The notes below the pieces were generated by a model, which searched no databases, was not told the DNA's origin, and worked only from the letters and a program-made list of their open reading frames with translations. The translations under genes and the position numbers were made by a program. Positions 2,157 through 22,515 of a stretch of DNA of 52,695 bases are shown piece after piece. Source of the DNA: an uncultured Campylobacterales bacterium (GTDB lineage: Bacteria; Campylobacterota; Campylobacteria; Campylobacterales; QNZT01); contig CAYUSV010000002.1 in assembly GCA_964447385.1 (NCBI GenBank), positions 1 through 52,695 of the forward strand. The letters run 5' to 3'. Numbering within the stretch: position 1 is the stretch's first letter; each line of letters opens with the position of its first letter.

Positions 2157-2972
2157 TTATTTCGATATATAAACGCTTAACCCTCTTTTGAGATTTTTAA
2201 GAGTATAAATATCGCTAATTTTTACATATTTTGCATTTGCTGGAATGCTAAGCCTTTCATTATAGCTTTTTATCTCTTTTGTAATGTTATCAAGGATATT
2301 TAAATCTCTATCATAAAACACAATATAAGGGTGCCAACTATTTGCTCTAGAGCTATTTATGACCAGAGTTCTAGCCCTTTGTATATCAATCCAGTAAGGG
2401 TTTAATGGTTTTTTTAGTTTTATTTTTTTGTTAAAAGTTATATTTTCAGGTACAATATCAATATTTGTGATGTTGATATTGTACCTCCAATTTGTTTTGG
2501 AGTACCGTTTTAGTTGTGTAATGTAACAATTTTGTTTTTTTAACTCTTGAGCAAAGAGTAAGGGATCAATTGCAGAAGAGGTTTTAAGTGATACTTTCCA
2601 TAAAAACCCACTATGATCTCTCATCGCCTTTTCTGTCCAAAGTGCACTATAACCTAAAGCATTTAGACTATTTTGTATCATTTTCATAAAAATAAGTGGG
2701 TTGTTTTGTTCGGTTGCAAAGCTAAGATGCAAATCTTTTGTCTTTTTAAAATCAAGTTGCAACAAATTGTTCTCTTTTATGGTTGATAAAACTTTATGAA
2801 TATCAATTTGGCTACCTACATAAAACTTTTGCTCATCTTTAAAGAGAATATTGAGAAACCTCTTTTTAGCAAAATAACTGTTTTGTCCTAAGATATTTTT
2901 TAATTCATCATTTAGCATATTTGCAAACGAGACATTTAAAAGTAGTGATAGGATTATAATAATTTTTACCAA
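2157..2972 (-). CDS. hypothetical secreted protein
   Basis: 271-aa ORF with an N-terminal signal-like segment MVKIIIILSLLLNVSFANM. Overlaps the upstream ORF by 7 nt. No recognisable motif. Confidence 0.5.
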   Translation of the reverse strand: MVKIIIILSLLLNVSFANMLNDELKNILGQNSYFAKKRFLNILFKDEQKFYVGSQIDIHKVLSTIKENNLLQLDFKKTKDLHLSFATEQNNPLIFMKMIQNSLNALGYSALWTEKAMRDHSGFLWKVSLKTSSAIDPLLFAQELKKQNCYITQLKRYSKTNWRYNINITNIDIVPENITFNKKIKLKKPLNPYWIDIQRARTLVINSSRANSWHPYIVFYDRDLNILDNITKEIKSYNERLSIPANAKYVKISDIYTLKNLKRGLSVYISK

Positions 2973-3991
2973 CCAACACCTGCGCTACTTCTTTTAAACT
3001 CTTTTTTATTAATTTCCATTAACTCTCCATCTCTATAGATAAAACGAACAAGATTTTTACTGCGAAATTTGACCGAGTATGACTTGTTATAAATGCGAAA
3101 ATGACTGTGACCAACTACAATTAACTGATCTCGCCCCGCATCTAATGGTAACTTAGTACGAATTAAAAAATCCTTTTTTGTAAAATCATCAAGATAAATT
3201 ATACCAACCCAAGCCTTTTTTGTTGGATAAATATAAAAATTACCTTTATCTATTACTTTTTTGACTGGTTTAGTCATCTCTTTTACTATAGGTTTTTGGA
3301 CTTCGTCTGTTTCAATTATTTTTGGTTTAGATAAAACAATTGGTGCTATATTATCACTTATATTGTGTTCGTCGCTAGAGTCGCTAGATATGTTTCTATC
3401 TTTCATCATTTGTAAGACTACTTTGTCAAGATCAAGATCAAAGTTTGTATTTTGCTCATCCTTTACAAGTTTTTTGTCAAGATCATTATCTACATCAAAG
3501 AGAGATTTAGTTCTATTTTCTTCAATTTTTTCTATATTCTTTTGCGCCTCTTTTATAACGCTTTTATTCTCTTCAATATGTGAAATTAGAGAGTCAACAG
3601 ACGCTGGTTTTTTATTGTCCATGGTAAAGAGATAGTATGCAAGCCCTAAAGCAACCAAAATAAGAGCTACATATTGTAAATACTTTTGCCATGCTTTACC
3701 ATCTGACATCGGAGTTTCGGTAAAAAGAGTTTCAGGTTCTTTAACCCTATTAGTACTCTCATGCTCTAAATATGCCTTTTTTAATGAAGTCAAATCAACA
3801 TCATACTCTCGCTCAAGAATTTGAATAAATCCTAAAGCTCTTGTTTTGTTTATATTTGTAAAATCTTTATTTAAAAAACTCTCTAAATCTGCATCACTGA
3901 TAAAAGTTTTTGTCGAAACTTTTTTATATCCCTGCTCAATTAGATACTCAACACCGGGTTTTTGACTCTTTTCTTCTTTCTTCTTTTGCAT
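2966..3991 (-). CDS. RodZ-like membrane protein (N-terminal HTH-like region, one TM, K/D/E-rich linker)
   Basis: 341 aa. N-terminal ~80 aa is HTH-like, followed by the TM segment YVALILVALGLAYYLF and a low-complexity periplasmic part. The architecture resembles RodZ, but the assignment is not secure. Confidence 0.45.
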   Translation of the reverse strand: MQKKKEEKSQKPGVEYLIEQGYKKVSTKTFISDADLESFLNKDFTNINKTRALGFIQILEREYDVDLTSLKKAYLEHESTNRVKEPETLFTETPMSDGKAWQKYLQYVALILVALGLAYYLFTMDNKKPASVDSLISHIEENKSVIKEAQKNIEKIEENRTKSLFDVDNDLDKKLVKDEQNTNFDLDLDKVVLQMMKDRNISSDSSDEHNISDNIAPIVLSKPKIIETDEVQKPIVKEMTKPVKKVIDKGNFYIYPTKKAWVGIIYLDDFTKKDFLIRTKLPLDAGRDQLIVVGHSHFRIYNKSYSVKFRSKNLVRFIYRDGELMEINKKEFKRSSAGVGW

Positions 3992-5511: not shown

Positions 5512-5519
5512 TACAGGGA

Positions 5520-7142: not shown

Positions 7143-9143
7143 ATGAAAAAACACCATTTAATCAATTTTTTAATTTTGCTATACATATTTTCAGCAAATG
7201 CATATGCATGGAAAGTTGAAAAAAGCTCTGTAGTACAATTAAAACTTACAAATAACGGAGACTTAGGTATCGGCACAGAAACTCCCGCAGCTAAACTAGA
7301 AGTACAAGGAAATATCAAAATAGTTGATGGAAATCAAAGCGATGGGTATGTTTTGACTTCAGATGCAAATGGATTAGCAACTTGGAAAAGCTCATCAGGA
7401 GGTGGTGCATCATCGATTAATGATTTGAGTGATGGAAAAACAATGTCCACTTCTATGTTTTTAGGAACTAATGCTGGTGTAGATACTAATAATACTGGTA
7501 TATACAATATTGGTATCGGTACAGAGTCTTTGTATAGCAACACGGACGGAACAAATAATATTGCAGTAGGATACCGTTCGTTAAAATTTAATACAAGAGG
7601 AGAATACAATACAGCGCTAGGAGGACGAAGCTTATATAGTAATATATCTGGAATGTATAGTGTTGCGTTAGGTCATAAAGCACTTTTTTCAAATACAACA
7701 GGAAATCAAAATGTTGCTATTGGGGTTAATTCCATGGCTACTTCAACTACAGGAGGAAATAATACAGCAATTGGATATCAAGCTTTAAATAAAAATCTAA
7801 CAGGAAGTAATAATACAGCAATTGGACATAGAGCACTCTACAACAATACAGAAAGTTACAATACGGCAACTGGATTTCGTGCTTTGTATAGTAATACTAT
7901 AGGAACTCATAATGTTGCGATGGGATATTCTGCCTTATCTAAAAACACAGAAGGAAACAATGGTACAGCAGTTGGTTATCAAGCTCTTAATCGTAACACA
8001 ACTGGAAATAATAACACAGCAACTGGACTTGAATCTTTAGGATATAATACAATAGGGAGTAATAACACTGCAATGGGAAACCAAGCTCTTAGGGATAATA
8101 CAACAGGAGACAATAACACTGCAATAGGAAATCAAACTCTTAGGTCTAATACAATTGGTATTAATAATGTAGCAACAGGATATCAAACTCTTAGATCCAA
8201 TACGATAGGTAGCTATAATACAACAGGTGGGTATAGAGCTATGTATAATAATATAGATGGCAATAAAAGTACCGCTGTAGGATATCAAGCTCTATATAGC
8301 AATACAAGCGGTAACAATAATAGTGCAAATGGATATGGGGCATTACAAAATAATACAACAGGTAATGATAACACTGCTACTGGATATTATGCCTTACTCA
8401 CCAATGAAACAGGAAGCTCAAATACGGCAACTGGATATGGAGCACTGCAAAATAATACTGATAGTAGTAATACCGCAATTGGATATAAGACACTACATAA
8501 TAATACAAGTGGTGGAGATAACACAGCAATTGGTCTTAAGACACTATTTTTAAATGAAACAGGAAATTTTAATACTGCAATTGGTCACTCAGCTGGTTAC
8601 AAATCTACCGGTGATGGAAATGTGTTTATTGGTTATAGAGCCGGTTATAATGAAACAGGTTCAGATAAACTATTTATAGACAATACAGATACAGTAGATC
8701 CTCTGATATGGGGAGATTTTAGTAATAATTGGTTAAGTGTAAATGGAGATTTGACAGTAACGGGTCCTTTAAATGTAAATGACAATGTAACAATAGATGG
8801 GGATTTAACTGTAAATGGTAATATCACTGCAACTGGCACAATTACCCCTTCTGATCGTCGCTTAAAAAAAGAGATTCAGACAATTGATAAAGCAGTAGAT
8901 AAAATTAACAGACTTCGAGGTGTTAGTTTTAAATATAAAAAAGATGATCGTCCAAGTATTGGTTTGATTGCACAAGAAGTTGAAGAGGTTTTCCCTGAGC
9001 TTGTGAGTGAAAATAAGAATGGATATAAAGGAGTGCAGTACCAAAACTTAGTTGGTGTGCTTATAGAGGCAGTAAAAGAGCAAAATAGAGAACTAAAAAG
9101 TTTAAAAGCTCAAATTGTAGAGTTAAAAAATAGTATAAAATGA
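7143..9143 (+). CDS. secreted tail-fibre-like repeat protein with C-terminal intramolecular-chaperone (peptidase S74-type) autoprocessing domain
   Basis: Signal peptide (..FSANA/YA). GIGTETPAAKLEVQG N-terminal motif. 23 x 17-aa NTAIGYxALxxNTxGxx repeats. C-terminal ..SDRRLKKEI..L.GVSFKYK....IGLIAQEVEEVFPELV....GVQYQNLVGVLIEAVKEQ + coiled coil. Its stop overlaps the next start (ATGA at 9140). Confidence 0.8.
   Translation: MKKHHLINFLILLYIFSANAYAWKVEKSSVVQLKLTNNGDLGIGTETPAAKLEVQGNIKIVDGNQSDGYVLTSDANGLATWKSSSGGGASSINDLSDGKTMSTSMFLGTNAGVDTNNTGIYNIGIGTESLYSNTDGTNNIAVGYRSLKFNTRGEYNTALGGRSLYSNISGMYSVALGHKALFSNTTGNQNVAIGVNSMATSTTGGNNTAIGYQALNKNLTGSNNTAIGHRALYNNTESYNTATGFRALYSNTIGTHNVAMGYSALSKNTEGNNGTAVGYQALNRNTTGNNNTATGLESLGYNTIGSNNTAMGNQALRDNTTGDNNTAIGNQTLRSNTIGINNVATGYQTLRSNTIGSYNTTGGYRAMYNNIDGNKSTAVGYQALYSNTSGNNNSANGYGALQNNTTGNDNTATGYYALLTNETGSSNTATGYGALQNNTDSSNTAIGYKTLHNNTSGGDNTAIGLKTLFLNETGNFNTAIGHSAGYKSTGDGNVFIGYRAGYNETGSDKLFIDNTDTVDPLIWGDFSNNWLSVNGDLTVTGPLNVNDNVTIDGDLTVNGNITATGTITPSDRRLKKEIQTIDKAVDKINRLRGVSFKYKKDDRPSIGLIAQEVEEVFPELVSENKNGYKGVQYQNLVGVLIEAVKEQNRELKSLKAQIVELKNSIK
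7503..8663 (+). repeat. 23 tandem degenerate 51-nt (17-codon; four units 48 nt) coding repeats
   Basis: Counted unit by unit in the translation (residues 121-507). Neighbouring units such as 8050-8200 are visibly similar at the DNA level. Confidence 0.85.
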
Positions 9144-11029
9144 AAAAGTTTGTTTTTATTATGGCATTTTTTCCTCTTTTGCTAAGTGCTAGATGTATAA
9201 GTAGTTATAGTGAAGATTTTACTCAAATCTGTGAAGAACATGTTGTAGTAGCAGAGGCACATGAAGCTGCTTGTTGTATTCAGCTTGGTTTAAATGCAGT
9301 AAATAGAAGTGGTGGTTGTTATAACTGGGACAACAATATCACAACAAAAACGGCCAACAAAAGCTTTGATTTAACAATTTTGGCAAATGATACCCTCTCT
9401 TCTTCACCCTTAAAGGATACAAATATAACCAAACTTGAGCTTTTAAGCTTTAGTGATGCTTTATGTACGACACAATATGCAACTGAAACTATCTGGAATG
9501 ATAGTGGAAAATCAGATATACAAGGGTGTTTTGAGCCAACAACTGCTTTTACACACACAAAAGCAATAAAATGTGCAAAAATAAGAGTATATGCTACACA
9601 TGATGATAATGATTTTAATGCTACTTCATCTGATACTTTTTCCATAAAACCTGATAGATTTGAGTTTATCATTTCACAAAGTGGAAAACTAATAGCTCAA
9701 AGAAATTACACAGTAGGTGTTAAAGCACTAGAATATGCAAACAGTAATGAGGTAGAGGATTATAACATTACTATTTTACCGGCTTCTAACAAGTATTTTA
9801 GAAATGGTAGTGATGGCTTGGCGATGGCTGGGAGTTTTGTACCAAGTACTAGTTTTGCTTTTGCAAATGGAGTGGTAGCAAATACAACTCTTAGTTTTGA
9901 CAATGTTGGTATCATTGGACTAGAGTTAAATGATACAACATGGAGTGAAGTTGATAGTGATGATACGCCTTTAGTAAAAAGAAGAATTTATCTTGAAGAG
10001 AATTTATCTTTTATACCAGATAGATTTGATATAAATTTTACTTTAACTCCAACGATGAAAAATTATGACAATAAAACATTTACCTATTATGCTGATGACA
10101 CTGTTAATATGGGGGCAAATTTAAAAAACCTTACCCACACCATTACCGCACTTGGAAAAGATGGAGCTATCATGACAAATTATCAAAATCCACAAACTAC
10201 ATATTTTGCAAATGATATAGATTTTCTACTAAATTTAAATATAGATCAAAATCCAACTCTTTTACCAGATATAAATGAAAATGTAACAAAAGATTTAAAC
10301 TTTACAGGAGGAGTTGCGACATTAACATACAGTGGTGTAAAATTTAATTTTGGCAGGGAAAAAAATGTAAGTAAAAATCCGCTCTTAGTAGATGGAACAA
10401 ATAGTGACATAAACATAACAACAACGGATAGTATTGATAGTGGTGTAAAAGGAGATATTCTACAAACTTTTGAAAACAATGCAACCTTTTATTATGGCAA
10501 AATACAAACCAAAGATATAAAAACAGCGATCTCTCCAACTACTGAGAGTTTAATTACTGAAGTCTATTGGGATGGTAGTGGTAGCAGAGTCTTTCCTTCT
10601 ACATTTGTGCAAAATACGACCTCTTGGTATACAAATGTAGATGACGATACAATTTCCACTTTAATAGATGGAGATTTCACTCCAATGAATAAGAGAAAGA
10701 TCGAAACTCCTCTCTTAGGTGTAACCATCAGCGTAGATTCACCAAATCCAACCAATGGAGAGATCGGTTATACTATCACAAAATCAGATACTACTAAGAC
10801 TCAAAAAGTTTATTATCATGTAGATATACCTATTTGGTTATGGTATAGCAGATATGAGGATTATAACTTTAGTACAGATAGTACTTGTGCTTCACATCCA
10901 TGTTTTGAGTATATTTTTGAGGCAGAAGATACGACTTCTGGTATTAAAAGTGGAAATTTTAAAGGTAGTAAATTTGATAATAATTTTGACTCGAAAATAG
11001 AGAAAAAGGCGATAAAGTTGATGAGGTAA
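9140..11029 (+). CDS. large secreted Cys- and sequon-rich protein, unknown function (positional candidate for pilus-associated adhesin, MshQ/PilY1-like role)
   Basis: 629 aa. N-terminal signal-like MKKFVFIMAFFPLLLSA. 12 D/E-x-N-x-S/T sequons by manual count. Translationally coupled to the fibre gene. No motif recognised. Confidence 0.6.
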   Translation: MKKFVFIMAFFPLLLSARCISSYSEDFTQICEEHVVVAEAHEAACCIQLGLNAVNRSGGCYNWDNNITTKTANKSFDLTILANDTLSSSPLKDTNITKLELLSFSDALCTTQYATETIWNDSGKSDIQGCFEPTTAFTHTKAIKCAKIRVYATHDDNDFNATSSDTFSIKPDRFEFIISQSGKLIAQRNYTVGVKALEYANSNEVEDYNITILPASNKYFRNGSDGLAMAGSFVPSTSFAFANGVVANTTLSFDNVGIIGLELNDTTWSEVDSDDTPLVKRRIYLEENLSFIPDRFDINFTLTPTMKNYDNKTFTYYADDTVNMGANLKNLTHTITALGKDGAIMTNYQNPQTTYFANDIDFLLNLNIDQNPTLLPDINENVTKDLNFTGGVATLTYSGVKFNFGREKNVSKNPLLVDGTNSDINITTTDSIDSGVKGDILQTFENNATFYYGKIQTKDIKTAISPTTESLITEVYWDGSGSRVFPSTFVQNTTSWYTNVDDDTISTLIDGDFTPMNKRKIETPLLGVTISVDSPNPTNGEIGYTITKSDTTKTQKVYYHVDIPIWLWYSRYEDYNFSTDSTCASHPCFEYIFEAEDTTSGIKSGNFKGSKFDNNFDSKIEKKAIKLMR

Positions 11030-11070
11030 TACATCCATAAAAACGGAATACAATTTGCTATATATCCATC

Positions 11071-11712
11071 ATGAGAGCTGGATTTAACTTAATTGAACTT
11101 ATTTTTACTATTGTTATTATGGCTGGTATATTTGTGGTTATTCCAAAGATTATTTTTGCTACAAACAAAAGTGATACCTTTGCCCTAAAACAGGAGGCAT
11201 TTTTTAACGCTATCTCACTTACCAATATCGCCTCTTTTCTTGCATGGGATGAAAATAGTACTCAAACTTTGTCTATTTTAGCAACTTCTGATGATATGAT
11301 AGCTTGTGATAAGAGTACATTTTTACGCTCTGGTGGATTTTTAAGCTCATATGGCAGAAATTGTGAAGAAGACTTTAATGCCTCAACAATTGGCTCAGAT
11401 GGGGAAAGCGATTATCTACTATTTAATGATATAGATGACTTTGATGGTGAGAGTATTGATGTAAATCTTAGCACAAAAACAAAATATAAAATTTTTACAC
11501 AAGTGCGTTATTTAGATGATAATATTTTTAGTGTTAGTGGTAATAAAATGACAATTGCACTTGACAACTCTTCTCGCATAGCAACATCAAATATTAAAAA
11601 ATTTAAAGCAACTGTTAGTTATGCAGGAAAAAGAGGGGATAAAAACATCTCCTCTTTTTCCTACTATTCAACCAATATCGGGCAAATCACATTAAATAGT
11701 GAGCCATGGTAA
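11071..11712 (+). CDS. minor prepilin-like protein
   Basis: N-terminus MRAG/FNLIELIFTIVIMAGI: G/F cleavage site, Glu at +5, hydrophobic helix. 213 aa. Confidence 0.75.
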   Translation: MRAGFNLIELIFTIVIMAGIFVVIPKIIFATNKSDTFALKQEAFFNAISLTNIASFLAWDENSTQTLSILATSDDMIACDKSTFLRSGGFLSSYGRNCEEDFNASTIGSDGESDYLLFNDIDDFDGESIDVNLSTKTKYKIFTQVRYLDDNIFSVSGNKMTIALDNSSRIATSNIKKFKATVSYAGKRGDKNISSFSYYSTNIGQITLNSEPW

Positions 11713-12611
11713 TGAGAAAAGCTTTTACTATGGTAGAGCTTATCACAACGATTGTGATCATGGGGATTTTAGCAGGAGGTACATATATATCTTTGGCAAA
11801 TCTTTATACAAAAAGTGCAAAATCAAAAGCAATAAGTGAATTATCGTTTGATTCAATTCTAATTTCAAATCAAATTTCAGCACTTCTCTTTCACAGAGTT
11901 CCATCTACGGTTATCGGCTATGATGCCCAAACTGGAAATTTTGAGTCGATCTATAGCATGGGCGCTAATTACACAATTTTTGAGTGGATTGCAACGGATT
12001 TTGAAGAGTATAAAGCAAAAAAATATAGTAGTTTTGTGGATTTTGAGAAATCAGACAAAAATACAAATTTACTCTACTCGCCAGATACAAATATATCTAC
12101 TGTTAGTAGTGATGCATTGGTATTTGCAGGCTCTTTTGATGAGGGTGGTGTAGTTTATGGCAGTGATTTTAATGACTCTTTTGGTTGGCATGGAAATAGT
12201 AGTGATAAGATATATGATATCAACAGTAGTTCCAGTGATAATGAAATAAGACTAACAGATAAACCCTCAAAAATTTATGAAAAATATTATCTACTAAAAG
12301 GTGCTTTTGCTCTTGCAAGATATGCAGATATCAATCAAAGTGCAAATTGTTTAAGTGATCTAAATATCACTTTAGGAGATGATACGCTTCTTTTGTTTTA
12401 TGATTACTATCCATACAAAGGCAAAACTTTTTGTGCAGATACTAGCGGAGATATAAATGGCAGTGTTACTCTTCTTTCAAACGAAGTTCAAGGTTTTGAG
12501 TTAGATTTCGTTAATGGTAATTTACAGTTTAATTTAACTCTAAAAAGAGAGGTACGAAAAAGAGGTAAAAATTTAACTATTCAAATTTCAAAACAGAAGG
12601 TGATATTTTGA
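11712..12611 (+). CDS. minor prepilin-like protein
   Basis: MRKA/FTMVELITTIVIMGILAGG class III signal. Preferred ATG at 11712 overlaps the upstream TAA (TAATG). The track start at 11706 adds MV. Confidence 0.75.
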   Translation: MRKAFTMVELITTIVIMGILAGGTYISLANLYTKSAKSKAISELSFDSILISNQISALLFHRVPSTVIGYDAQTGNFESIYSMGANYTIFEWIATDFEEYKAKKYSSFVDFEKSDKNTNLLYSPDTNISTVSSDALVFAGSFDEGGVVYGSDFNDSFGWHGNSSDKIYDINSSSSDNEIRLTDKPSKIYEKYYLLKGAFALARYADINQSANCLSDLNITLGDDTLLLFYDYYPYKGKTFCADTSGDINGSVTLLSNEVQGFELDFVNGNLQFNLTLKREVRKRGKNLTIQISKQKVIF

Positions 12612-13021
12612 TGCGAAGTGGTTTTGGGATGATTCAGGTTATATTTTTTATGCTTATTTTATCTGGTATTTTAGCAATCTCTATGAGATATGCCTCAATC
12701 ACTACCAAGCAGACACAAGATTTATATATCAAAGAACAAGCTTCTCTTTTTATGCAAAGTGCAATTGAGTTGGCACTGCTTGGAATTAGTTCACATGATT
12801 ATAACTCTAGTGGATTTATTGAAGATATAGAGGTTATATCTGATGATAAAAGGTTTATTGCAGACATCAATATCACTACCTACTATATATATGGTGTAAA
12901 TATTGATACAGAAGTATCTAGTGGAATGATAAACTTAGATATTGTGGTTGAAACAAACAATACTCACCCCAAAAATAGTAGAAAGATTAGAATTACAAAG
13001 AGGAGTTTACAAAAATTATGA
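12611..13021 (+). CDS. minor prepilin-like protein lacking Glu+5 (GspK/PilX-like feature)
   Basis: MRSG/FGMIQVIFFMLILSGI has Gln instead of Glu at +5. ATG 12611 overlaps the upstream TGA (TGATG). The track start at 12608 is TTG. Confidence 0.7.
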   Translation: MRSGFGMIQVIFFMLILSGILAISMRYASITTKQTQDLYIKEQASLFMQSAIELALLGISSHDYNSSGFIEDIEVISDDKRFIADINITTYYIYGVNIDTEVSSGMINLDIVVETNNTHPKNSRKIRITKRSLQKL

Positions 13022-13473
13022 AAAGTGCATTTTCTATGATAGAACTTATCTTTATAATAGTTATTATAGGTATTTTGGGTGCAACGATGCAGATGAATAT
13101 GCCTGATAATAGACTCTTTAGTGATATAAACTTTATCACTCAAAAAATAAAATCAAAACAGATTTATGCACTCTCTTATGATAATTTTGATTATGAAAAT
13201 AGTCAATTTATTGATAACTCTACATGTATTACAATAAGTAGAGATTTTTTAAATGAAGATGAGAGAAACAGTTCAAAAGCAAATCCTTACCAAATTAGCT
13301 CTTATACTACTCTATCTATAAGTGATGAAAATCTCTGTTTTGATAATTTAGGAAGAGTCTATAAATTAAATAATTTACTAAAATTGCCGATAGAGTTAAA
13401 TATAACCTATAAGAATAAAACAAAAACAGTAAATATCATGCCACTAAGTGGCAGTGTTGTAGTAAAGAAGTAA
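13018..13473 (+). CDS. minor prepilin-like protein
   Basis: MKSA/FSMIELIFIIVIIGILGA class III signal. ATGA overlap with the upstream ORF. Confidence 0.75.
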   Translation: MKSAFSMIELIFIIVIIGILGATMQMNMPDNRLFSDINFITQKIKSKQIYALSYDNFDYENSQFIDNSTCITISRDFLNEDERNSSKANPYQISSYTTLSISDENLCFDNLGRVYKLNNLLKLPIELNITYKNKTKTVNIMPLSGSVVVKK

Positions 13474-13476
13474 GAG

Positions 13477-14964
13477 ATGCCAAAAATTATCAACTATATC
13501 AATTTGCAAAATAGCCAAACTTTCTCTTTTGATAAATTAGTTAATGATAAGGCAAGTTTTAAAAATAGAAAAACTCCAGTAGGGGCAAGGTTTCTTTATG
13601 GCGATATAATTTCACATAGTTTTAAAATAGCAGATAACCTCTCAAAACAAGAATTACTTGTCAAGATAGAGCTTAAAATGTATGAAGATATAGGATTGGA
13701 TCCGACAAAAACATACCAAATTTCCTATATTCAAAAAGAGGTAGCGTTAAATAGTGAAATTCTTTTGGAAGCTTTTGCAGTTGATAAAGATGCAGTTAGC
13801 AACAAGTACCAAAATTATGTTAAAAAGAGTAAATATATAGATTTTATCGCTATTCCTTTTTTAGTATTTCAAACGCTATACACAAACAAAACTTTAGAAC
13901 CTAAAAATGACATATTTATCTATATCTCATATGATGAAGCGTTTACCACCTCCTATAAAGACGGTAACTATATATCTTCTAAAAGAATTAAAACTATTGA
14001 TGATATGGTACACGATCTTGGTAGCAGAAATATCACTATCAGTAGTGAAGAGCTTTATGAAATTATCACGACAAAAGGACTTAAAAAAAGTAGTTATGAA
14101 CTTTTACAATATGAGCTATATGAGTATCTAGTAGAGACATTTGAAACTCTATTTTCAAAGATAAAAAACTTAAGTCTACACAACAGAAATGTTTATAGTT
14201 TTACCCAGATTGATAGAGTCTTTTTTACTTGTAATCAAAAAAATGTGCCACATCTGCAAGAGCAGGTACAAAGTTATGTAGAAAATGCAGAATTTAAAAC
14301 GCTAAATTTTTTACAAACAAAAACAGTTAATGTATTGGATGCAATTAGTTCATCATATATCAAAGATAAGTTATCACAAAATGATCATGATCATAATGTT
14401 ACCCTCTTTAAGCCAAAAGCACCTTTTTATAAAAGCGAAGTTGGAAAGTTTACTTTTGCAACAGTCGCTTCGGCGCTTATTTTATCAATTTATCCTATAT
14501 ATTTACAGCTTGAAATATCTTCAAAAAAACAGGAAAATGAGATACTTATAGATAAAGAATTACAGATTAGTAAAACCTCAAAAAAGTTTCAACTTAAATT
14601 AAAAAAGATTAAAACCCAAATTTCCCAGTATAATCAAAAAAAAGAGATAGATCAAAAAAAACTACAGAACCTTCAATCTATTGCGAATTCTCTTCTTTTG
14701 CTTAAATCAAAAGATACAAAATATACAGATATGATTTTAAAGATCAATAAAATTCTAGGTAGATACCATCTCAGTATCGATAAAATTACCCAAACTGATA
14801 CTCATGCACTGAATTTAGAGTTATCATCAAAAAAAGATAAACGAGATACAATAGCTCTTTTTATGAAAGATCTTTTAAACAATGGTTTTAGCTCTGCTAT
14901 ATCTTCAGAAATAACTCTAAAAGATGATGATATTTATAAAAGTATCGTTACGGTAAAGAGGTAA
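13477..14964 (+). CDS. MshI-like pilus assembly protein (PilM-like cytoplasmic part + TM + coiled coil)
   Basis: 495 aa. One TM (FTFATVASALILSIYPIYL) followed by a K/Q-rich coiled coil. First position of the I-J-K-L-M-N-E-G order. Confidence 0.5.
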   Translation: MPKIINYINLQNSQTFSFDKLVNDKASFKNRKTPVGARFLYGDIISHSFKIADNLSKQELLVKIELKMYEDIGLDPTKTYQISYIQKEVALNSEILLEAFAVDKDAVSNKYQNYVKKSKYIDFIAIPFLVFQTLYTNKTLEPKNDIFIYISYDEAFTTSYKDGNYISSKRIKTIDDMVHDLGSRNITISSEELYEIITTKGLKKSSYELLQYELYEYLVETFETLFSKIKNLSLHNRNVYSFTQIDRVFFTCNQKNVPHLQEQVQSYVENAEFKTLNFLQTKTVNVLDAISSSYIKDKLSQNDHDHNVTLFKPKAPFYKSEVGKFTFATVASALILSIYPIYLQLEISSKKQENEILIDKELQISKTSKKFQLKLKKIKTQISQYNQKKEIDQKKLQNLQSIANSLLLLKSKDTKYTDMILKINKILGRYHLSIDKITQTDTHALNLELSSKKDKRDTIALFMKDLLNNGFSSAISSEITLKDDDIYKSIVTVKR

Positions 14965-14969
14965 ATTAG

Positions 14970-15596
14970 ATGACAACAGTAGAAAAATTTGAAAATTATC
15001 TAAAAAAGGTGAAACCAGCACAAAAAATTTTAATATTTTTAATGCCTTTGATTTTTTTTGGTGGAATTTTTTTTATGATGATTTTACCTATGCAAGAAGA
15101 AGATATAGAGATGCTCAATGCCCAAAATAGCAAACTTTATGCCAACATAAAAAGAAAATCATCAAAAACAGTGAAAAAAAAGATACAAAAATCCAAAAAA
15201 GAACTTTTAGATCTTAAAGAGAAGGTTCAAAAAGATCATGATTCACTCAGCTTTTTATATGCTAAACTTACTAATCTGGAAATTTTAGAGTTTAGCCAAG
15301 CGCAGTGGGCTGCAACGCTTGATGATATTTTGAAAAAATCTTTGAGTTTAAATATCAAAATTAAATATATCAAAAATAGTGACTCAGAAACTAAAAAAGT
15401 ACAAGAGAAAATTGTACCTAAAAAGTATGTTGAAATTAGAGGAAGTGCAAAATTTAGCGATGCATTAGAGTATCTGAATTTTATAGAAAATAGACAATTT
15501 TTAGTAGATATCAAAAATATTCAGATGAATAGAAGTGAAAATTTGCAAGATATTGACTTTGTTATCAATTTTACCATTTATGGAGTAAATATATGA
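14970..15596 (+). CDS. MshJ/PilO-like bitopic assembly protein
   Basis: 208 aa. N-terminal TM (ILIFLMPLIFFGGIFFMMIL), coiled coil, C-terminal globular part. AAGAGG RBS. Confidence 0.5.
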   Translation: MTTVEKFENYLKKVKPAQKILIFLMPLIFFGGIFFMMILPMQEEDIEMLNAQNSKLYANIKRKSSKTVKKKIQKSKKELLDLKEKVQKDHDSLSFLYAKLTNLEILEFSQAQWAATLDDILKKSLSLNIKIKYIKNSDSETKKVQEKIVPKKYVEIRGSAKFSDALEYLNFIENRQFLVDIKNIQMNRSENLQDIDFVINFTIYGVNI

Positions 15597-16024
15597 AAAT
15601 TTTTATACTTTTTAGTTTAACTCTCTCTTTTCTTTTTTGTGATGCTAAACTTATTGCAAATATTGATAAAACTTTTCAAGAGGTTATAAATCAAAGCAGA
15701 GCCAAAAAAGTCAATGATATTAAGGTTGATTATGATCCATTTAATATAAAAACATCAAAACCAACAACCAAAAATGTAGCGAAACTCAACAACCAAAAAC
15801 AATCAAAACCTAAAAATAGTTCAAAAAAACCAGTTTTAAGTATGATTTTGAATAAAAAAGCTTTTATAAATGGTAAATGGTATAAAGAAGGTGGAAAATT
15901 TGCCGATTATGCGATAAGAGAAATAAATCAAGATATTGTAATTTTGGAAAAAAATAGTAAATATTCCACATTAAAACTTCCATTGACAGATACCGTCTTG
16001 ATAATACATCAGGAGATAGAGTGA
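15593..16024 (+). CDS. MshK/PilP-like small secreted protein
   Basis: 143 aa. Signal peptide, K-rich linker, C-terminal ..AFINGKWYKEGGKFADYAIREINQDIVILE.. ATGA overlap upstream, GTGA overlap downstream. Confidence 0.45.
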   Translation: MKIFILFSLTLSFLFCDAKLIANIDKTFQEVINQSRAKKVNDIKVDYDPFNIKTSKPTTKNVAKLNNQKQSKPKNSSKKPVLSMILNKKAFINGKWYKEGGKFADYAIREINQDIVILEKNSKYSTLKLPLTDTVLIIHQEIE

Positions 16025-17406
16025 AGATATTTGTAGCTATTGTTGTTCTATTTATGAGTATCAGTTTACACGCAACATGTCAAAGTAAATTTTTCTCATT
16101 TAAAGTCAATAGCACAAAAAGCGCTCCAGGGACAATCTTAAATGTCTTAGAGAGTCTCTCAAGTGAGTGTAAAATGAGTATTATATTTAAAGATGATACA
16201 GCGAGAGAGATGACAGAAAAAAAGATCAGTTATCTTAGTGTTAATGATTTTACACTTGAAGAGATTTTAGATCTGCTTTTGAGTGAAAACAATCTTTTTT
16301 ATACATTAAGCGATAGAAATGTCTTAAAGATATCATATTTACAGACTAAAACATTTTTTATAGATTATGTAAGCTTCACTGATCGAAGTAGTACTTCAAA
16401 CAGAACTATTCAAACAGGTTCAAATGATGGTGGTGATGGTTCAACCTCTTTAAACTCTACTAGCTCATTTAGACTCTGGGATGAGATAGAAAATGAGATG
16501 AAAACTATTTTAAACAGAGATGGAGACACTTATAGCTCTGAAAATACAATCATAAATCAAGATGCAGGTTTAGTCACTGTAACTGGAACCAAAAGACAAA
16601 TTGATCGTATGCAAAAGTATATTGATATTCTTATGGATAGATTGCATAAGCAGATTTTAATAGATGCGAAGGTTATCGAAGTCACATATGCGCAGGATCA
16701 GACAATAGGTATTGATTGGAGTAAATTTGAAGCTACTTTAAATGGTACAGCAGATGGATCAAAGGGGACAGGGATTATAAACACTCTTAGTGATCCGACA
16801 TATCTCTCAAAATACAATTTTACAATTGCAGGTCTTATAGATTTTTTAAAAACTCAAGGAGATGTAGATATCGTCTCAAATCCAAAAATACTCACACTAA
16901 ATAACCAACCTGCTATCATAAATGTTGGTGAAGAGAAAAATTATAAATATACAACAGGTGTTACAACAACAGCAACAACAGCAGGCACAGTACAAGTACC
17001 ACAGTTTGAAGTTGGTTCAACTTTTGTAGGAGTTACGCTCTCAATTGTACCTGAAGTCACTAAAGATGATTTCATTATTTTAAAAATAAATCCATCAATT
17101 AGTGAAATATCAAAACAACATGTAGATGAAAACGGTGTTCCAAACTTAGCTCCTGATATAAAAATCAAACAACTCTCTTCAGTAGTAAAAGTAAAAAATA
17201 ATAAAAAAATATTACTAGGAGGACTAATTCAGAGAAAAAGTCAAGAAAACATTACAAAAATCCCAGGTTTGAGTGCTATACCTATTTTGGGAAATGTTTT
17301 TAGGAGTAAAAAAACAGTTAATACTAAGAGTGAATTGATTATAGTTATAACGCCAAAACTTATTCGAGGTGATGAGAATGAACCTACCTTGGAGGATTTG
17401 GACTAA
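16021..17406 (+). CDS. mshL: secretin (MshL/PilQ/GspD family)
   Basis: Secretin C-domain motifs NNQPAIINVGEE, IPGLSAIPILGNVFRSKK, SELIIVITPKLI. Signal peptide present. GTG start. Confidence 0.85.
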   Translation: MKIFVAIVVLFMSISLHATCQSKFFSFKVNSTKSAPGTILNVLESLSSECKMSIIFKDDTAREMTEKKISYLSVNDFTLEEILDLLLSENNLFYTLSDRNVLKISYLQTKTFFIDYVSFTDRSSTSNRTIQTGSNDGGDGSTSLNSTSSFRLWDEIENEMKTILNRDGDTYSSENTIINQDAGLVTVTGTKRQIDRMQKYIDILMDRLHKQILIDAKVIEVTYAQDQTIGIDWSKFEATLNGTADGSKGTGIINTLSDPTYLSKYNFTIAGLIDFLKTQGDVDIVSNPKILTLNNQPAIINVGEEKNYKYTTGVTTTATTAGTVQVPQFEVGSTFVGVTLSIVPEVTKDDFIILKINPSISEISKQHVDENGVPNLAPDIKIKQLSSVVKVKNNKKILLGGLIQRKSQENITKIPGLSAIPILGNVFRSKKTVNTKSELIIVITPKLIRGDENEPTLEDLD

Positions 17407-17445
17407 ATAAGTAATGTTCCTATTACTTAACCTTAAAGAGGAAAC

Positions 17446-18252
17446 ATGAATCAATACGCTAGAGCAAAAGATCTATTTAACGATGATTTTGATTTAAGTG
17501 GGTATTTTGACTCTTTGACCTTCGAGTATGCAAAAAAGAGTTTAGTCGATGCTATCACTGCACATGACACACCTTTAGTGTTTGTTTTGGGTAGTCCAGG
17601 AAGTGGAAAAAGTTTTTTGTTAAATTATATCACCCAAAAAGTTAAAGATGTCAGGGTAGCGAAGTATTTTACCCATCCATACTTTGATGATAAAGAGTTT
17701 TTGGAGATTCTCTTATCTCTTGCAGGTAAAAACATCGGACGAAACGAATTTACAACCGAAGCGTTAATTTCACAACTGAGAAGAAGCTTTAGCAATCTTG
17801 AATATACGATTTTTATCGATGAAGCACAACTTTTAACAGAAGAGCAAATAGAGCTTATTAGAATTTTAAGTGACCAGAAAATCTTTCAATTTGTTTTAGC
17901 TATGCATGAAAAAGAGGGAAGATATATCTTACAAAAGGATCATTTTAAATCTCGCACAAATAGGGTAGTAAAAATCGAACAACTCCAAGATCATGAAGTA
18001 ACCAGATATATAGAACACCGCCTAATCTCAAACAATCTATCAGAACTAGCATCTGAGTTTAAAAAAAGACACATCCAATACATAAGTCAATATGCAAAAA
18101 GGAACTTTCGAACAACCAAAAAATTAGTCCGAACTCTTTTTGAAATTATGAATATCGCGCACAAAGAAAATCTCTCTAGCAAATATACAAAAGTGAGTGA
18201 AAGAACATTAACTATGGCAGCTATAGATACAGGACTTTTAGATGTTAAATAA
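17446..18252 (+). CDS. mshM: ExeA/MshM-type AAA ATPase
   Basis: Walker A GSPGSGKSF, Walker B IFIDEAQ. 268 aa. Sits directly after the secretin, as in msh operons. Confidence 0.75.
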   Translation: MNQYARAKDLFNDDFDLSGYFDSLTFEYAKKSLVDAITAHDTPLVFVLGSPGSGKSFLLNYITQKVKDVRVAKYFTHPYFDDKEFLEILLSLAGKNIGRNEFTTEALISQLRRSFSNLEYTIFIDEAQLLTEEQIELIRILSDQKIFQFVLAMHEKEGRYILQKDHFKSRTNRVVKIEQLQDHEVTRYIEHRLISNNLSELASEFKKRHIQYISQYAKRNFRTTKKLVRTLFEIMNIAHKENLSSKYTKVSERTLTMAAIDTGLLDVK

Positions 18253-18922
18253 TAATTTTAATGAACTTGTCAAAAAATATGAAAAATATAGAGGTAAAAG
18301 AAGAGATAAAATGCTTCTTAGTACATTGCTTGTTTTAGCGATATTAGCTGGTGGTTATTATTTGGTAACAAATAGCGGTTTTATCACACAAAGTTTCAAA
18401 AAAACTACACCAGAGTCACAAAAGAGTGGAACTATTGTAGATACTCAAATAGCTGATGAAACAACAGAAGATAACCCGGTACAAGAGATTAAAACACACA
18501 AAGAAGAGAAAGCTGAAAAACCACTCCAAAGAGTTAAGGTAGATACACCAAAAACTGAAGAGTTGCCAAATAAAGTCTATGATCGTACCACTAAAAAAAT
18601 AGAAAATACAAATCCATTTCAACTAAAAGTCAAGGAGAGAAAAAACCTATATAAACTCTTAACAGATGATAAAAAACAAAATAGTTATCAATCTGCTATA
18701 AGTGTGGCTCAGTTTTATTTTGAAGAAAAAAATTATGATCAGACAATTATCTGGTCTGTAAAAGCAAGTAAAAAAGATCCTAGAGAGAGTCTTCCGTGGA
18801 TTTTATATGCAAAATCAAAAGCTACACAGGGTAAAACAAAAGTTGCAAAAAAAGCACTCGCTATCTATTTAAAACATACCGACTCAAAAAAGGTACAAGA
18901 TTTGCTAGATACTTTGAAATAG
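18242..18922 (+). CDS. MshN-like bitopic protein (TM + C-terminal TPR-like helices)
   Basis: 226 aa. TM LLSTLLVLAILAGGYYLV, charged linker, C-terminal helical repeat (..AISVAQFYFEEKNYDQTIIWSVKA..). 11-nt overlap with mshM. Confidence 0.45.
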   Translation: MLNNNFNELVKKYEKYRGKRRDKMLLSTLLVLAILAGGYYLVTNSGFITQSFKKTTPESQKSGTIVDTQIADETTEDNPVQEIKTHKEEKAEKPLQRVKVDTPKTEELPNKVYDRTTKKIENTNPFQLKVKERKNLYKLLTDDKKQNSYQSAISVAQFYFEEKNYDQTIIWSVKASKKDPRESLPWILYAKSKATQGKTKVAKKALAIYLKHTDSKKVQDLLDTLK

Positions 18923-18968: not shown

Positions 18969-20633
18969 ATGCGAAAAACGGTACGAATTGGTGATATCCT
19001 TATAGAAGAGGGAAAAATCACCCAAGAACAACTCATGCATGCTCTCAGCGTTCAAAAGGGGAGTAACTTTTCAAAAAAACTTGGTGAAATTTTTGTCGAT
19101 GAAGGGCTTATCAGTGAAAAAGAGTTTGCTCAGGTTTTAGCTAGTCAACTTGATTTTGAGTTTATTGATCTTTATGGTACCAATATTAATTTTAACACCT
19201 TAAAAAACTTTTCACTAAATATGCTTAAAAGCGCAGATGCTCTTGTGATAAAAGAGGATGAAGATTTTATCCATATAGCAATCTCTGATCCTTTGAATTA
19301 TGATCATATGGAGTTGTTGGAGCGAAATATAGTCATAAAACCTATAAGATACTATATCTCTTTAAAATCAGATATCAAACATGTATATGAGAGATTTGAG
19401 ATCATAGAGACTACACAATCATTGATGCAAAAAGTAAAAAATGAGATAAATTCTAAAGAGTTTAAATTAGACAATGAACAGAGTTCTATCATGCAGCTTA
19501 TTGAGCAGATTATCAAAAGTGCTGTAAGAAATGGTGCTAGTGATATTCATATAGAGCCAAACAACAAAGATGTCTCTGTTAGAAATAGAGTTGATGGAGT
19601 TTTAAGAGAAGTTTTTATCTTGGATATCGATATATACAATGCACTAGCTTCTCGTATCAAAATTTTGGGAAATCTTGATATTTCTGAAAAAAGAAGATCA
19701 CAAGATGGAAGATTTTCACTAGAAGTTAATGGCAATATATATGATTTTAGGCTCTCAACAGCACCTACACTTCACGGAGAGTCAATTGTACTTCGAATTT
19801 TGGATCAGCAAAAGGTTCTTTTAAAACTTGATAAATTAGGCATGAGTGAGACAAACTTAAAAAAATTTCAAGCACTACTTGATACTCCATATGGTGTTGT
19901 TTTTGTAACAGGACCCACAGGAAGTGGTAAAACAACCACACTTTATGCTGCACTAAACGAGATAAAAAGTATCGAAAATAAGATAATCACTATCGAAGAC
20001 CCTATTGAGTATCAACTGCCACTTGTGCAACAAATACAAACAAATGAGAAGATAAATTATACATTTAACCATGTTTTAAAATCAGTCCTGAGACAAGATC
20101 CAGATATAATCATGGTAGGTGAGATAAGAGACGATGAAACTCTAAATACAGCAGTTGGTGCCTCTTTAACGGGTCACTTGGTATTTTCAACTCTACACAC
20201 CAATGATGCGCCGAGTGCTATTACAAGATTGGTTCAAATGGGATTACAATCATATCTTATTGCTGATTCTCTTATTGGGATTGTAACTCAAAGATTGGTT
20301 AGAGAAATTTGTCAAAGTTGCAAAGAGTCACATAAACCTCAAAATACTCTTATTGAAAAAGTTAAAAAATATCTACCTGAGTCTTATATGTTTTATCACG
20401 GTAAAGGGTGTACAAAATGTAGTTTTAGTGGTTATCGTGGAAGAGTTATGATTTGTGAGATATTGCAGATAAACGATACGATATCTAGTCAAATCTCTGA
20501 AGAGAAAAACAGACATGAGATCTATAAAGAGGCGCTTAAAGGTGGATATGAACCTATGCTCATAGATGGTCTTAAAAAAGCACTACAATCAACAACATCT
20601 TTAGAAGAGGTGCTTAGAGTTGTTAAAATATGA
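18969..20633 (+). CDS. mshE: GspE/PilB-family assembly ATPase with MshE-type N-terminal domain
   Basis: Walker A GPTGSGKTT, Asp/His boxes, tetracysteine CQSC...CTKC. N-terminus carries two tandem RLGxxhhxxGhhxxxxLxxxLxxQ-like motifs. Confidence 0.9.
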   Translation: MRKTVRIGDILIEEGKITQEQLMHALSVQKGSNFSKKLGEIFVDEGLISEKEFAQVLASQLDFEFIDLYGTNINFNTLKNFSLNMLKSADALVIKEDEDFIHIAISDPLNYDHMELLERNIVIKPIRYYISLKSDIKHVYERFEIIETTQSLMQKVKNEINSKEFKLDNEQSSIMQLIEQIIKSAVRNGASDIHIEPNNKDVSVRNRVDGVLREVFILDIDIYNALASRIKILGNLDISEKRRSQDGRFSLEVNGNIYDFRLSTAPTLHGESIVLRILDQQKVLLKLDKLGMSETNLKKFQALLDTPYGVVFVTGPTGSGKTTTLYAALNEIKSIENKIITIEDPIEYQLPLVQQIQTNEKINYTFNHVLKSVLRQDPDIIMVGEIRDDETLNTAVGASLTGHLVFSTLHTNDAPSAITRLVQMGLQSYLIADSLIGIVTQRLVREICQSCKESHKPQNTLIEKVKKYLPESYMFYHGKGCTKCSFSGYRGRVMICEILQINDTISSQISEEKNRHEIYKEALKGGYEPMLIDGLKKALQSTTSLEEVLRVVKI

Positions 20634-21871
20634 AATATTTTGAAATAGTCTACATGATAGGAGGAGAGAAAAGCTCAACTATCATCCAATCCCTACACAA
20701 GATAGACGCTCTAAAGCAGTTTCAAAATCGCACTTTGGGCATAATGGTCTCAGTGGATGAGGTAAACGAACCTCTAATGATGCGTTTAGAAAATTTTACA
20801 AAATCAATCAAAAACAGATCGCTAAAAAAACGAGTCAAACCAGAGCCTTATATCGCTTCTCTTCGACAATTAGGTGTCATGCTTGATGCTGGAATTCCTA
20901 TAAATCAATGTTTTTTGGAAGTTGTAAATACAACCGACAACAAACAGATAAGAGAAATTTTTAGACAAATCGCTCTAAAAGTAGAATCAGGAAGTAGCAT
21001 ATCTCAGACATTTGCTGATTTCTCGTTTGAGCTTGGAAGTCTCTCTTATTCTCTTATCTCCCTTGGAGAGCAGACAGGTGCTTTGGCAGAAGCGGTGATA
21101 AAACTCTCAAATATATTGGATGAGATAGAACAAAATAGGAAAAAATTAAAAAAAGCTCTTCGTTACCCTTTTATTGTCATGCTTGCTATGGTTGGTGCTT
21201 TTATCACTGTTATAAAGATGATTGTTCCACAGTTTAAAGAGATGTTTGAAGAGTACAACAGCGATCTTCCCCTGCCTACTCAAATACTTTTAGGTATTGA
21301 GGATTTTATAAAAGAGAGTGGTTTGCTTATCTTAATCTCAATTATAGGCATTATCATAACTCATATTATACTCTATCGCCAAAAAGGTAGATACAAATAT
21401 CTAATGGATAAATATATCTTAAAAATCTATTTAGTAGGGAAAATTACCCGCTTATCTATGACAGGAAGATTTATGTATGTTTTTAACTCTCTTACAAACT
21501 CAGGAGTACCAATCATAAAAGCTCTCACTATTTCAGAAAATATAGTAGAAAATAGTTATCTTAAGGAGCGATTTGAACAGATAGAAGACTCTATCGAAGA
21601 GGGTAAGACACTAACCCAAGGATTTACAGAGAGTGAACAATTTGAAAATATGATCATACAGATGATCAAAGCCGGAGAGACAAGCGGATCTCTTAACAAA
21701 ATGCTTGAAAAAGTACATATCTACTACTCTGCCAAGTATAATGACCTAATCGACAATATCTCAACCTATATTGAACCAATCATGATAGCAGCTCTTGCTG
21801 GTTTTTTAACTCTATTTGCTCTTGGTATCTTTTTACCTATGTGGTCTATGGCTGAAGTAATTGGACAATAA
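20630..21871 (+). CDS. mshG: GspF/PilC-family inner-membrane platform protein
   Basis: 413 aa. Duplicated GspF domain (..LGVMLDAGIPI.., ..LTNSGVPIIKAL..) and three TM segments. ATGA overlap with mshE. Confidence 0.88.
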   Translation: MKYFEIVYMIGGEKSSTIIQSLHKIDALKQFQNRTLGIMVSVDEVNEPLMMRLENFTKSIKNRSLKKRVKPEPYIASLRQLGVMLDAGIPINQCFLEVVNTTDNKQIREIFRQIALKVESGSSISQTFADFSFELGSLSYSLISLGEQTGALAEAVIKLSNILDEIEQNRKKLKKALRYPFIVMLAMVGAFITVIKMIVPQFKEMFEEYNSDLPLPTQILLGIEDFIKESGLLILISIIGIIITHIILYRQKGRYKYLMDKYILKIYLVGKITRLSMTGRFMYVFNSLTNSGVPIIKALTISENIVENSYLKERFEQIEDSIEEGKTLTQGFTESEQFENMIIQMIKAGETSGSLNKMLEKVHIYYSAKYNDLIDNISTYIEPIMIAALAGFLTLFALGIFLPMWSMAEVIGQ

Positions 21872-21876: not shown

Positions 21877-22515
21877 TTATGTACATGTTATACTAAATGC
21901 CATACCAAGGTCAGAGCTAGAAAAATCAACAGAGTTGGTAGTATTAACATCAATGAGCATAAAATCACCACTTATAATTTGTCTCTTCTTGCTTAAGGAG
22001 CTTTCAACATAACATTTATTTGTAGAGTTTGTATCTACCATATAAAGCCAAAAGTCATTTTTATCAGGTTTTCCCTCTATGTCTCTTGAGTTATTTGTTG
22101 AACTAAATTTAACTCCAACAGTAGGATCAGAAGCTTTAGCTGTATAAATTCTGTAGATATTTGTACTATTATTTTCAAACTGCTTTTTAAAACCACTTTT
22201 GCCAGAAGTTTTTATCAATGCTCCTATATCGTCACCGTTTCGTGATAGATTATAAGGATAACCACTAGATGCTAAATCTGTCTCTATATCATCATCTACA
22301 CCATCATTGTTCCAATCAAAATCATCATCATTTACACTCCAAGTCCCATGAATTGACTCTAACGCTGCCGTAATAGCTGCTACGCTTGAGAGTTCTGTGG
22401 ATCTTTTTGCTTGATCTTTGATATTGGTAAATTTTGGTATAGCTACAGAAGATAGTATACCGATAATCACAATTACAAATATAAGCTCAACCATAGTAAA
22501 AGCATTTCGCTTCAT
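21877..22515 (-). CDS. type IV pilin (major-pilin candidate 1)
   Basis: MKRNA/FTMVELIFVIVIIGILSSVAIPKF class III signal. 212 aa. Two C-terminal Cys (..NKCYV.., ..SITCT) could form a D-region disulfide. AAGGAA RBS. Confidence 0.85.
   Translation of the reverse strand: MKRNAFTMVELIFVIVIIGILSSVAIPKFTNIKDQAKRSTELSSVAAITAALESIHGTWSVNDDDFDWNNDGVDDDIETDLASSGYPYNLSRNGDDIGALIKTSGKSGFKKQFENNSTNIYRIYTAKASDPTVGVKFSSTNNSRDIEGKPDKNDFWLYMVDTNSTNKCYVESSLSKKRQIISGDFMLIDVNTTNSVDFSSSDLGMAFSITCT

Follow-up and report, generated by a model that had tools for sequence, protein, structure and literature searches.

Introduction

The pgl system of Campylobacter jejuni and Campylobacter lari, in which the oligosaccharyltransferase PglB acts at the extended sequon D/E-x-N-x-S/T of exported proteins, is the closest described counterpart of what we report here. 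We have analyzed a 52,695 bp contig (CAYUSV010000002.1, approximately 32% GC) of a metagenome-assembled genome (MAG) from an uncultured bacterium of the Campylobacterota that is found in hydrothermal-vent metagenomes; this whole stretch of DNA is called the window below. It carries a type IV pilus locus of the mannose-sensitive haemagglutinin (MSHA) type in which the same acceptor motif is densely represented, and the predicted clients are likewise exported. To our knowledge nearly everything known about PglB comes from Campylobacter and a small number of Helicobacter species, with few sites per client, and the known Campylobacter clients usually have one to a few sites and include no type IV pilus. 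The proteins considered here differ from these clients in that 17 to 53 sites per 1,000 residues are packed into one functional module of an uncultured vent bacterium, as predicted from sequence. The PglB proteins of its relatives share 38 to 42% identity with C. lari PglB and retain R331 along with every catalytic residue, and their loci contain pglC/D/E/F-like genes.

Filaments of the type IV class with N-linked glycans have been described in archaea. The pili and archaella of Methanococcus, Haloferax and the Sulfolobales resemble the case predicted here in the density of their surface sites and in that their subunits are N-glycosylated outside the membrane, before assembly, by an enzyme of the STT3 family. 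The archaeal AglB uses the short sequon N-x-S/T, and unglycosylated subunits are often not assembled (PMC4471445). We propose in contrast a bacterial PglB with its rule of an acidic residue at position -2 relative to the Asn, and the strongest signal falls on tip-side proteins and not on the major subunit. The O-glycosylated pilins of bacteria (Neisseria PglL/PglO, Pseudomonas TfpO/PilO, Acinetobacter and Burkholderia) share with our proposal the en bloc transfer of a lipid-linked glycan in the periplasm before assembly. There the linkage is to Ser/Thr, the enzymes are O-oligosaccharyltransferases of the Wzy_C family, and modification typically affects the major pilin at a single site or a few (PMC9239064, PMC1976384), whereas Asn-linked sites, dozens per module, are predicted here. 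In the papers returned by our full-text searches, pilus glycosylation was O-linked in bacteria and N-linked in archaea, and PglB was in no case the enzyme that modified a type IV pilus. A first-pass annotation of this DNA had been aware of no N-glycosylated type IV pilus described in this phylum, and the searches found none for any bacterium.

The pilus itself has its counterpart in the MSHA pilus (MshA-Q) of Vibrio cholerae and the Gammaproteobacteria, with which it shares the gene set (MshE with an MshEN domain, MshG, MshL, MshM/N, prepilins and a member of the MshQ family). Unlike in the gammaproteobacterial locus, the gene order is different, the MshQ-like protein is short, comprising the DUF6701 part only at approximately 25% identity, and there is an excess of sequons that is absent from gammaproteobacterial-type MshQ.

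Results

Extended sequons are concentrated in seven pilus proteins

The pilus locus occupies positions 9140-22515 of the window, and a second pilin is encoded further off at 30767-31456. Seven of the encoded proteins carry the sequon of PglB clients (D/E-X1-N-X2-S/T, where X is not Pro) and are referred to as the pilus set:

9140..11029, plus strand: MshQ-like exported protein of 629 amino acids (aa) with a signal peptide and 12 extended sequons (recount, precomputed domain, AlphaFold2 (AF2) model)
11071..11712, plus strand: minor prepilin 1, 213 aa, 4 sequons (TIGR02532)
11706..12611, plus strand: minor prepilin 2, 301 aa, 6 sequons (N_methyl match)
12608..13021, plus strand: minor prepilin 3, 137 aa, 3 sequons (prepilin-like N-terminus read from the sequence, without a family match)
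13018..13473, plus strand: minor prepilin 4, 151 aa, 2 sequons (prepilin-like N-terminus read from the sequence)
21877..22515, minus strand: major pilin candidate A, 212 aa, 3 sequons confined to the C-terminal half (pilin family match)
30767..31456, minus strand: pilin candidate B, 229 aa, 2 sequons (pilin family match)

Sequons were counted on table-11 translations with a regular expression (D/E, not P, N, not P, S/T), and the numbers were compared with 20,000 composition-preserving shuffles of each protein. The pilus set contains 32 sequons in 1,872 residues, while the pooled shuffles averaged 3.2 and never exceeded 11, corresponding to an approximately 10-fold excess. Expressed as density this is 17.1 sequons per 1,000 aa, which is 15-fold above the 1.14 found in the other 52 open reading frames (ORFs) of the window (17 sequons in 14,897 aa). 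The acidic residue at -2 is itself overrepresented, since D/E precedes 32 of the 56 N-x-S/T sites in the pilus set (57%) compared to 17 of 130 elsewhere (13%; Fisher P = 2e-9). The bias is seen both in the MshQ-like protein (12 of 23 sites) and in the four minor prepilins taken together (15 of 23). For the MshQ-like protein 1.2 sequons are predicted from its composition and 12 are observed; it reaches a shuffle P < 5e-5, as do minor prepilins 2 and 3, followed by minor prepilin 1 (P = 4.5e-4) and minor prepilin 4 (P = 0.024).

A mechanical recount returned exactly the 12 sequons that the first-pass annotation had listed for the 629-aa protein, and likewise its values for the two pilin candidates (3 and 2) and for the MshE ATPase, which has none. 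Its counts of 6, 3 and 2 for minor prepilins 2 to 4 were also reproduced, whereas the first prepilin, to which it gave three, has four (DENST, DFNAS, DVNLS and DKNIS).

Asparagine richness is not the cause of the excess, because the Asn-richest neighbour, a 666-aa protein encoded directly upstream at 7143-9143, consists of 14% N and has 29 N-x-S/T sites, with the -2 acid at only 3, and is thus unenriched. It is clear from these numbers that the sequon excess exists and that chance falls far short of explaining it.

The excess is specific to the fibre and one membrane protein

The remaining genes of the pilus locus, together with two further genes that enter the comparisons, are the following:

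13477..16024, plus strand: three assembly proteins in the MshI/J/K position (495, 208 and 143 aa; 1, 0 and 0 sequons), named by position and synteny only
16021..17406, plus strand: MshL-like secretin, 0 of 6 N-x-S/T sites with a -2 acid (PF00263, 2e-43)
17446..18922, plus strand: MshM-like AAA_22 ATPase and MshN-like TPR protein, 0 sequons (domain matches)
18969..20633, plus strand: MshE extension ATPase with T2SSE and MshEN domains, 0 sequons (PF00437, 2e-130; PF05157)
20630..21871, plus strand: MshG-like platform protein (T2SSF), 0 sequons (domain match)
7143..9143, plus strand: exported Asn-rich repeat protein (666 aa) with a C-terminal Peptidase_S74 chaperone domain (domain match)
2966..3991, minus strand: single-pass membrane protein, 341 aa, 4 sequons (hydropathy; without a Pfam match)

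The pilus is of the MSHA type by the presence in one operon of an ATPase with the MshEN domain, a T2SSF platform protein, a secretin, an MshM-like AAA protein and an MshN-like TPR protein. All pilus genes are intact open frames. The 629-aa protein gave no match in local copies of Pfam and NCBIfam; its membership of the MshQ family (DUF6701) is based upon a precomputed PF28247 (DUF6701_3rd) domain, which is present in the window's own protein (P0020) as well as in its homologues, and upon a family profile that matches proteins named MshQ at E = 1e-21 to 3e-44. N-terminal LamG domains are frequent among the homologues, as they are in MshQ proteins. Four of the six pilins match PF07963 or TIGR02532 at the N-terminus, and the remaining two prepilin N-termini were read from the sequence. 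No candidate prepilin peptidase was seen in the window, to which this look was confined.

Window proteins were sorted into exported and cytoplasmic by a simple hydropathy classification. Per 1,000 residues, the cytoplasmic proteins contain approximately 0.9 sequons. A similar density is seen in the ten further proteins that are exported or N-anchored (2 sequons in 2,525 aa), so that the general bias towards the periplasm and the cell surface, which had been read from the sequence before, was not borne out. What did hold is that the pilus set is denser than other exported proteins of the window (17.1 per 1,000 aa compared to the same 2 in 2,525 aa). The secretin and the MshI/J/K-like proteins, which face or cross the periplasm, are unenriched as well. 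The excess is therefore specific to the fibre components and to the single-pass protein at 2966-3991. Within the fibre components the first 60 residues of every prepilin are free of sequons, all of which lie beyond the N-terminal pilin helix, and with a signal peptide on the MshQ-like protein and prepilin N-termini on the pilins the acceptor segments are predicted to be periplasmic.

In the single-pass protein all four sequons are located in an acidic linker directly after the transmembrane segment, and the orthologue in the syntenic locus L004 (3920-5002, minus strand) has five, making this protein a candidate for a further PglB client outside the pilus. As a separate observation, the cytoplasmic QueE-like radical SAM protein (34221-34955, minus strand) shares an ETNAT pentapeptide with its counterpart at 4925-5698 in the distant genome L005, which is a reminder that lone conserved sequons in cytoplasmic enzymes arise for structural reasons.

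Sequons are conserved in relatives and absent from gammaproteobacterial-type MshQ

Homologues of the MshQ-like protein were found in 17 cases, of which 15 were aligned. Each of these 15 has between 17 and 53 sequons per 1,000 residues, with the -2 acid at 52-88% of its N-x-S/T sites. Approximately ten alignment columns keep a sequon in 12 to 14 of the 15 proteins, for example DNNIT/ENNIT/DDNIT, DxNIT/EANIT, ESNS[ST] and ExN[LV]T, while the choice between D and E, the choice between S and T and both x positions vary. Such retention of position with varying residues is what selection on the sequon itself would be expected to leave.

The comparison was extended to the whole locus using four syntenic loci from other assemblies, L004 (38% GC), L005 (55% GC), L166 (32.5% GC) and L167, making five with the window; L166 is from the same genus as the window source, as judged by 94% aminotransferase identity. 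In these five loci, which span 32-55% GC, the fibre proteins carry 130 sequons in 9,213 aa, amounting to 58% of their N-x-S/T sites, and the machinery proteins only 8 in 9,878 aa, or 10% (Fisher P = 2e-15). In the MshQ-like protein of the 55%-GC relative as many as 18 of 23 N-x-S/T sites are extended sequons. Among the minor pilins of three aligned loci several sequons are fixed in position and others have been gained or lost between orthologues: DENST at Asn62 of minor prepilin 1 is kept in L004 and L005 (DENxT), and DINIT of minor prepilin 3 is kept in all three loci. The three sequons of pilin candidate A are kept in a 93%-identical relative.

As a control within the family we used the C-terminal 620 aa of gammaproteobacterial-type MshQ, where 0 to 3 sequons are found and 0.4 to 1.1 are expected, which is chance level; Campylobacterota-type MshQ-like proteins in the same comparison have 7 to 32. 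The distant family members reached by the profile included one protein named MshQ from Pseudoalteromonas and two named MshQ by the Joint Genome Institute. Because these proteins of the same family are at chance level, the excess is lineage-specific and not intrinsic to the fold. In long MshQ-like proteins of the Campylobacterota the N-terminal LamG parts are far less enriched than the DUF6701 part.

Some further differences between the loci were observed. The MshN-like protein of L004 (19094-19711) has four sequons and the window orthologue (18242-18922) has none; the sequon load on this component, as counted in the translations, thus varies by lineage. The gene at 7143-9143 shares a 4-base overlap with the downstream MshQ-like gene, and its Peptidase_S74 (endosialidase chaperone) end is of the kind found in phage tail fibres. 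In the same-genus locus L166 (10001-14341) its place is occupied by a LamG/PA14/pentaxin segment, the N-terminal part of a single fused MshQ of 1,446 aa, and in L004 (8020-10026) a separate 668-aa LamG protein stands in its place, so an adhesin-like front module seems to be swapped among close relatives. When four metagenome runs were compared with the window, clusters of substitutions appeared at 9538-9622, 10832-10878, 12161-12245 and 14656-14925, that is in the MshQ-like, prepilin and MshI-like genes, and the stretch from the secretin to MshE was nearly invariant. Strain-level microdiversity is concentrated on the fibre-side genes.

PglB in relatives of the window organism

The ORFs of the window reach at most 666 aa and give no STT3 match. 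In the relative MAG JAJRSK01 the syntenic pilus locus is located on JAJRSK010000064.1 and an intact pglB gene on JAJRSK010000065.1. Among the MAGs of relatives from which a pglB locus was obtained, JAJRSK01 is the closest, with an aminotransferase 84% and an MshE 75% identical to those of the window. Its PglB is a protein of 702 aa with STT3, PglB-core and PglB-C domains, encoded within a glycosyltransferase/PglF-like locus, and it retains the C. lari PglB residues D56, R147, D154, D156, E319, R331 and R375 as well as the WWDYG motif. In the PglB proteins of the relatives L090 and L084, neither of which is the window organism, the Pfam domains STT3, STT3-PglB_core and STT3_PglB_C are found, and WWDYG, the DxD motif, the catalytic D56/E319, R375 and R331 are invariant (alignment A3). 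In published structures of C. lari PglB, R331 is the residue that binds the -2 acid of the sequon, and its retention in the PglB of relatives therefore matches the form of sequon seen in the pilus proteins.

A search with C. jejuni PglB as query returned Campylobacter proteins only. A profile search gave 150 representatives. PglB relatives made up at least 557 among the 600 pattern matches listed from species-representative genomes, and the best 80 of the listed matches were nearly all from vent or sediment Campylobacterales (Sulfurovum, Sulfurimonas, Hydrogenimonas). PglB is near-universal among the related MAGs retrieved. Our reading of the pilus supposes a pglB in the genome of the window organism too.

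Candidate pglB loci were ranked by tetranucleotide similarity to the window and by similarity to the PglB of the relative. L084, a 13.9-kb metagenome contig, contains AsnB-like, GT4 glycosyltransferase and epimerase genes followed by pglB, pglC, pglD and pglE, and it is found at approximately 100% identity in all four tested runs (X1-X4, from two studies) that contain the window. Mapping at 80% likeness showed that many pglB genes are present in the sample, none of which could be assigned to the window organism.

Two side observations concern the genomic setting of such loci. In a family-level relative (L006, 1-19374 of JBPLOI010000002.1) a pgl locus of 14 genes follows directly after moaA-queE and includes an ABC flippase, several GT2/GT4 genes, an AsnB-like gene, pglB, a pglA-like gene, pglC and pglD; the moaA-queE-queD genes of the window (33643-35917) have no adjoining pgl locus. 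The contig JAJRPL010000330.1 (L154) carries a pglB of the Campylobacterales type, encoding a protein 52% identical to the L084 PglB, and is binned as 'Bacteroidetes bacterium' in a MAG from the same dive sample as JAJRSK01; its placement is probably a binning error.

Discussion

We consider it probable, from the statistics and comparisons above, that the fibre-side components of this pilus have been selected to carry many PglB-type acceptor sites and are PglB clients. In the mechanism that we propose the MshQ-like protein would be exported via Sec, and the prepilins would be placed into the inner membrane such that their globular parts face the periplasm. An inner-membrane PglB, using the Arg equivalent to C. 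lari R331 to read the -2 acid, would then transfer a preassembled oligosaccharide linked to undecaprenyl-diphosphate onto the Asn of D/E-x-N-x-S/T, after which the glycosylated subunits would be assembled by MshE/MshG and extruded through the MshL secretin. The predicted result is a tip complex covered with N-glycans on a partly glycosylated shaft. The proposal of an N-glycosylated pilus is drawn entirely from sequence statistics and comparative genomics, and the sites are presumably occupied by glycans. It was suggested in the first-pass annotation that the pilus and its accessory protein are heavily N-glycosylated; as far as the minor prepilins and the MshQ-like protein are concerned this agrees with the -2 bias, the conservation, the predicted topology and pglB in a relative MAG, whereas for the major pilins, being weakly enriched, the case is weaker. 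A heavily glycosylated tip complex is thus better supported by the sequon distribution than a heavily glycosylated shaft. The glycans could possibly serve as a shield against proteases, heat and chemistry, phage or grazers, or they could tune adhesion.

Several observations weigh against this reading. The two major-pilin candidates are only modestly enriched (3 and 2 sequons; P = 0.009 and 0.040). In the AF2 model of the 629-aa protein (pLDDT 79, pTM 0.71), which is an all-beta string of Ig-like beta-sandwich domains for which a fold search of the PDB returned only generic Ig-like adhesins and macroglobulins with low TM (template modelling) scores, 7 of the 12 sequon Asn residues are in beta-strands, mostly within two residues of the strand end, and 5 are in coil. 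PglB modifies flexible segments of folded proteins or chains that have not yet folded, and judging from the model, which tips the question of access by PglB neither way, some of the sequons of the MshQ-like protein may be unoccupied. The RNA runs that were searched for the pilin gene do not contain it. As to the enzyme, the depth of L084 is only about one third of that of the window (approximately 10 compared to 30 in X1 and approximately 4 compared to 10 in X2), and for this reason it probably belongs to another genome, that of a co-occurring relative or another population. L086, L098, L089 and L087 were rejected as the pglB locus of the window organism, being absent from the runs that contain the window, and so were L099 and L157, which occur in other runs only.

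That six tested pglB loci belong to other populations is what might be expected if the sequons were relics, inherited from a lineage with PglB by an organism in which pglB has since disappeared or the pilus is not expressed, leaving the sites now unmodified. We find this unlikely, because without selection the -2 bias would decay, and in the window (12 of 23 sites in the MshQ-like protein, 15 of 23 in the minor prepilins) it is as strong as in relatives that have pglB; the intact state of every pilus gene and the near-universal presence of PglB in the related MAGs retrieved speak against it too. The sequon could also be a turn or cap, or a metal-binding motif, of the folds in question and have nothing to do with glycosylation. 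Several sequons are indeed deeply conserved, seven of the twelve are in or at the ends of strands in a confident model, and the cytoplasmic QueE retains ETNAT in two genomes. This is, however, quite unlikely as an explanation for the excess, as the same pentapeptide is overrepresented across unrelated folds (an Ig-like string, four pilin heads and the linker of a membrane protein), the conserved columns hold only D/E, N and S/T with variable x positions, many sites have been gained or lost between orthologues, and MshQ homologues of the gammaproteobacterial type are without the excess.

A different Asn-modifying system, either a cytoplasmic N-glycosyltransferase of the HMW1C type or an AglB-like enzyme, would recognize the short N-x-S/T sequon, which is contained in every extended one, and 24 of the 56 sites in the pilus set lack the -2 acid. 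HMW1C and AglB require no acid at this position, and we regard their involvement as very unlikely given that the -2 bias is the signature of a Campylobacter-type PglB and that the PglBs of relatives keep the Arg reading the -2 acid. Even less probable, and ruled out by the shuffles (mean 3.2, maximum 11, against 32) and by the test of the -2 position, is that the excess is due to chance or is a by-product of amino-acid composition in surface proteins rich in N, D, S and T from an AT-rich genome. The pilus proteins are rich in S/T (17-20%) and N (5-11%), but the -2 acid is found at 3 of 29 sites in the Asn-richest neighbour, and in the 55%-GC relative the excess is cleaner still.

Selection for PglB acceptor sites on the fibre remains our preferred explanation, and with less assurance we are inclined to extend it beyond the window. 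We would then expect vent and sediment Campylobacterales to share a purpose-built, densely N-glycosylated pilus module consisting of an MshQ-family adhesin and minor pilins with 17-53 sequons per 1,000 residues. In that case it would be the first Asn-glycosylated type IV filament in bacteria, convergent with archaeal pili, and would exceed every known PglB substrate by a wide margin in its degree of modification. The comparisons point to a sugar-coated bacterial pilus of a type so far described only in archaea; it would be a logical extension of the general glycosylation system, and what is striking is the density and conservation of the predicted sites. If true, it would give the widespread pgl loci of free-living chemolithotrophic Campylobacterota a concrete and testable role, provide natural multi-site acceptor proteins for glycoengineering, and allow bacteria and archaea to be compared directly as to the reasons for coating type IV filaments with sugars in hot and chemically harsh habitats.

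A minor observation concerns the DNA adjoining the pilus locus. Three or four genes for NosL-like lipoproteins are located at 22640-27551 and 42028-42576, the weakest Pfam match among them (23352-23903) being just under the curated cut-off. They accompany a DsbD_2 membrane protein and an ABC/FtsX transporter, and from its gene content the group looks like a copper or nitrous-oxide-reductase accessory cluster.

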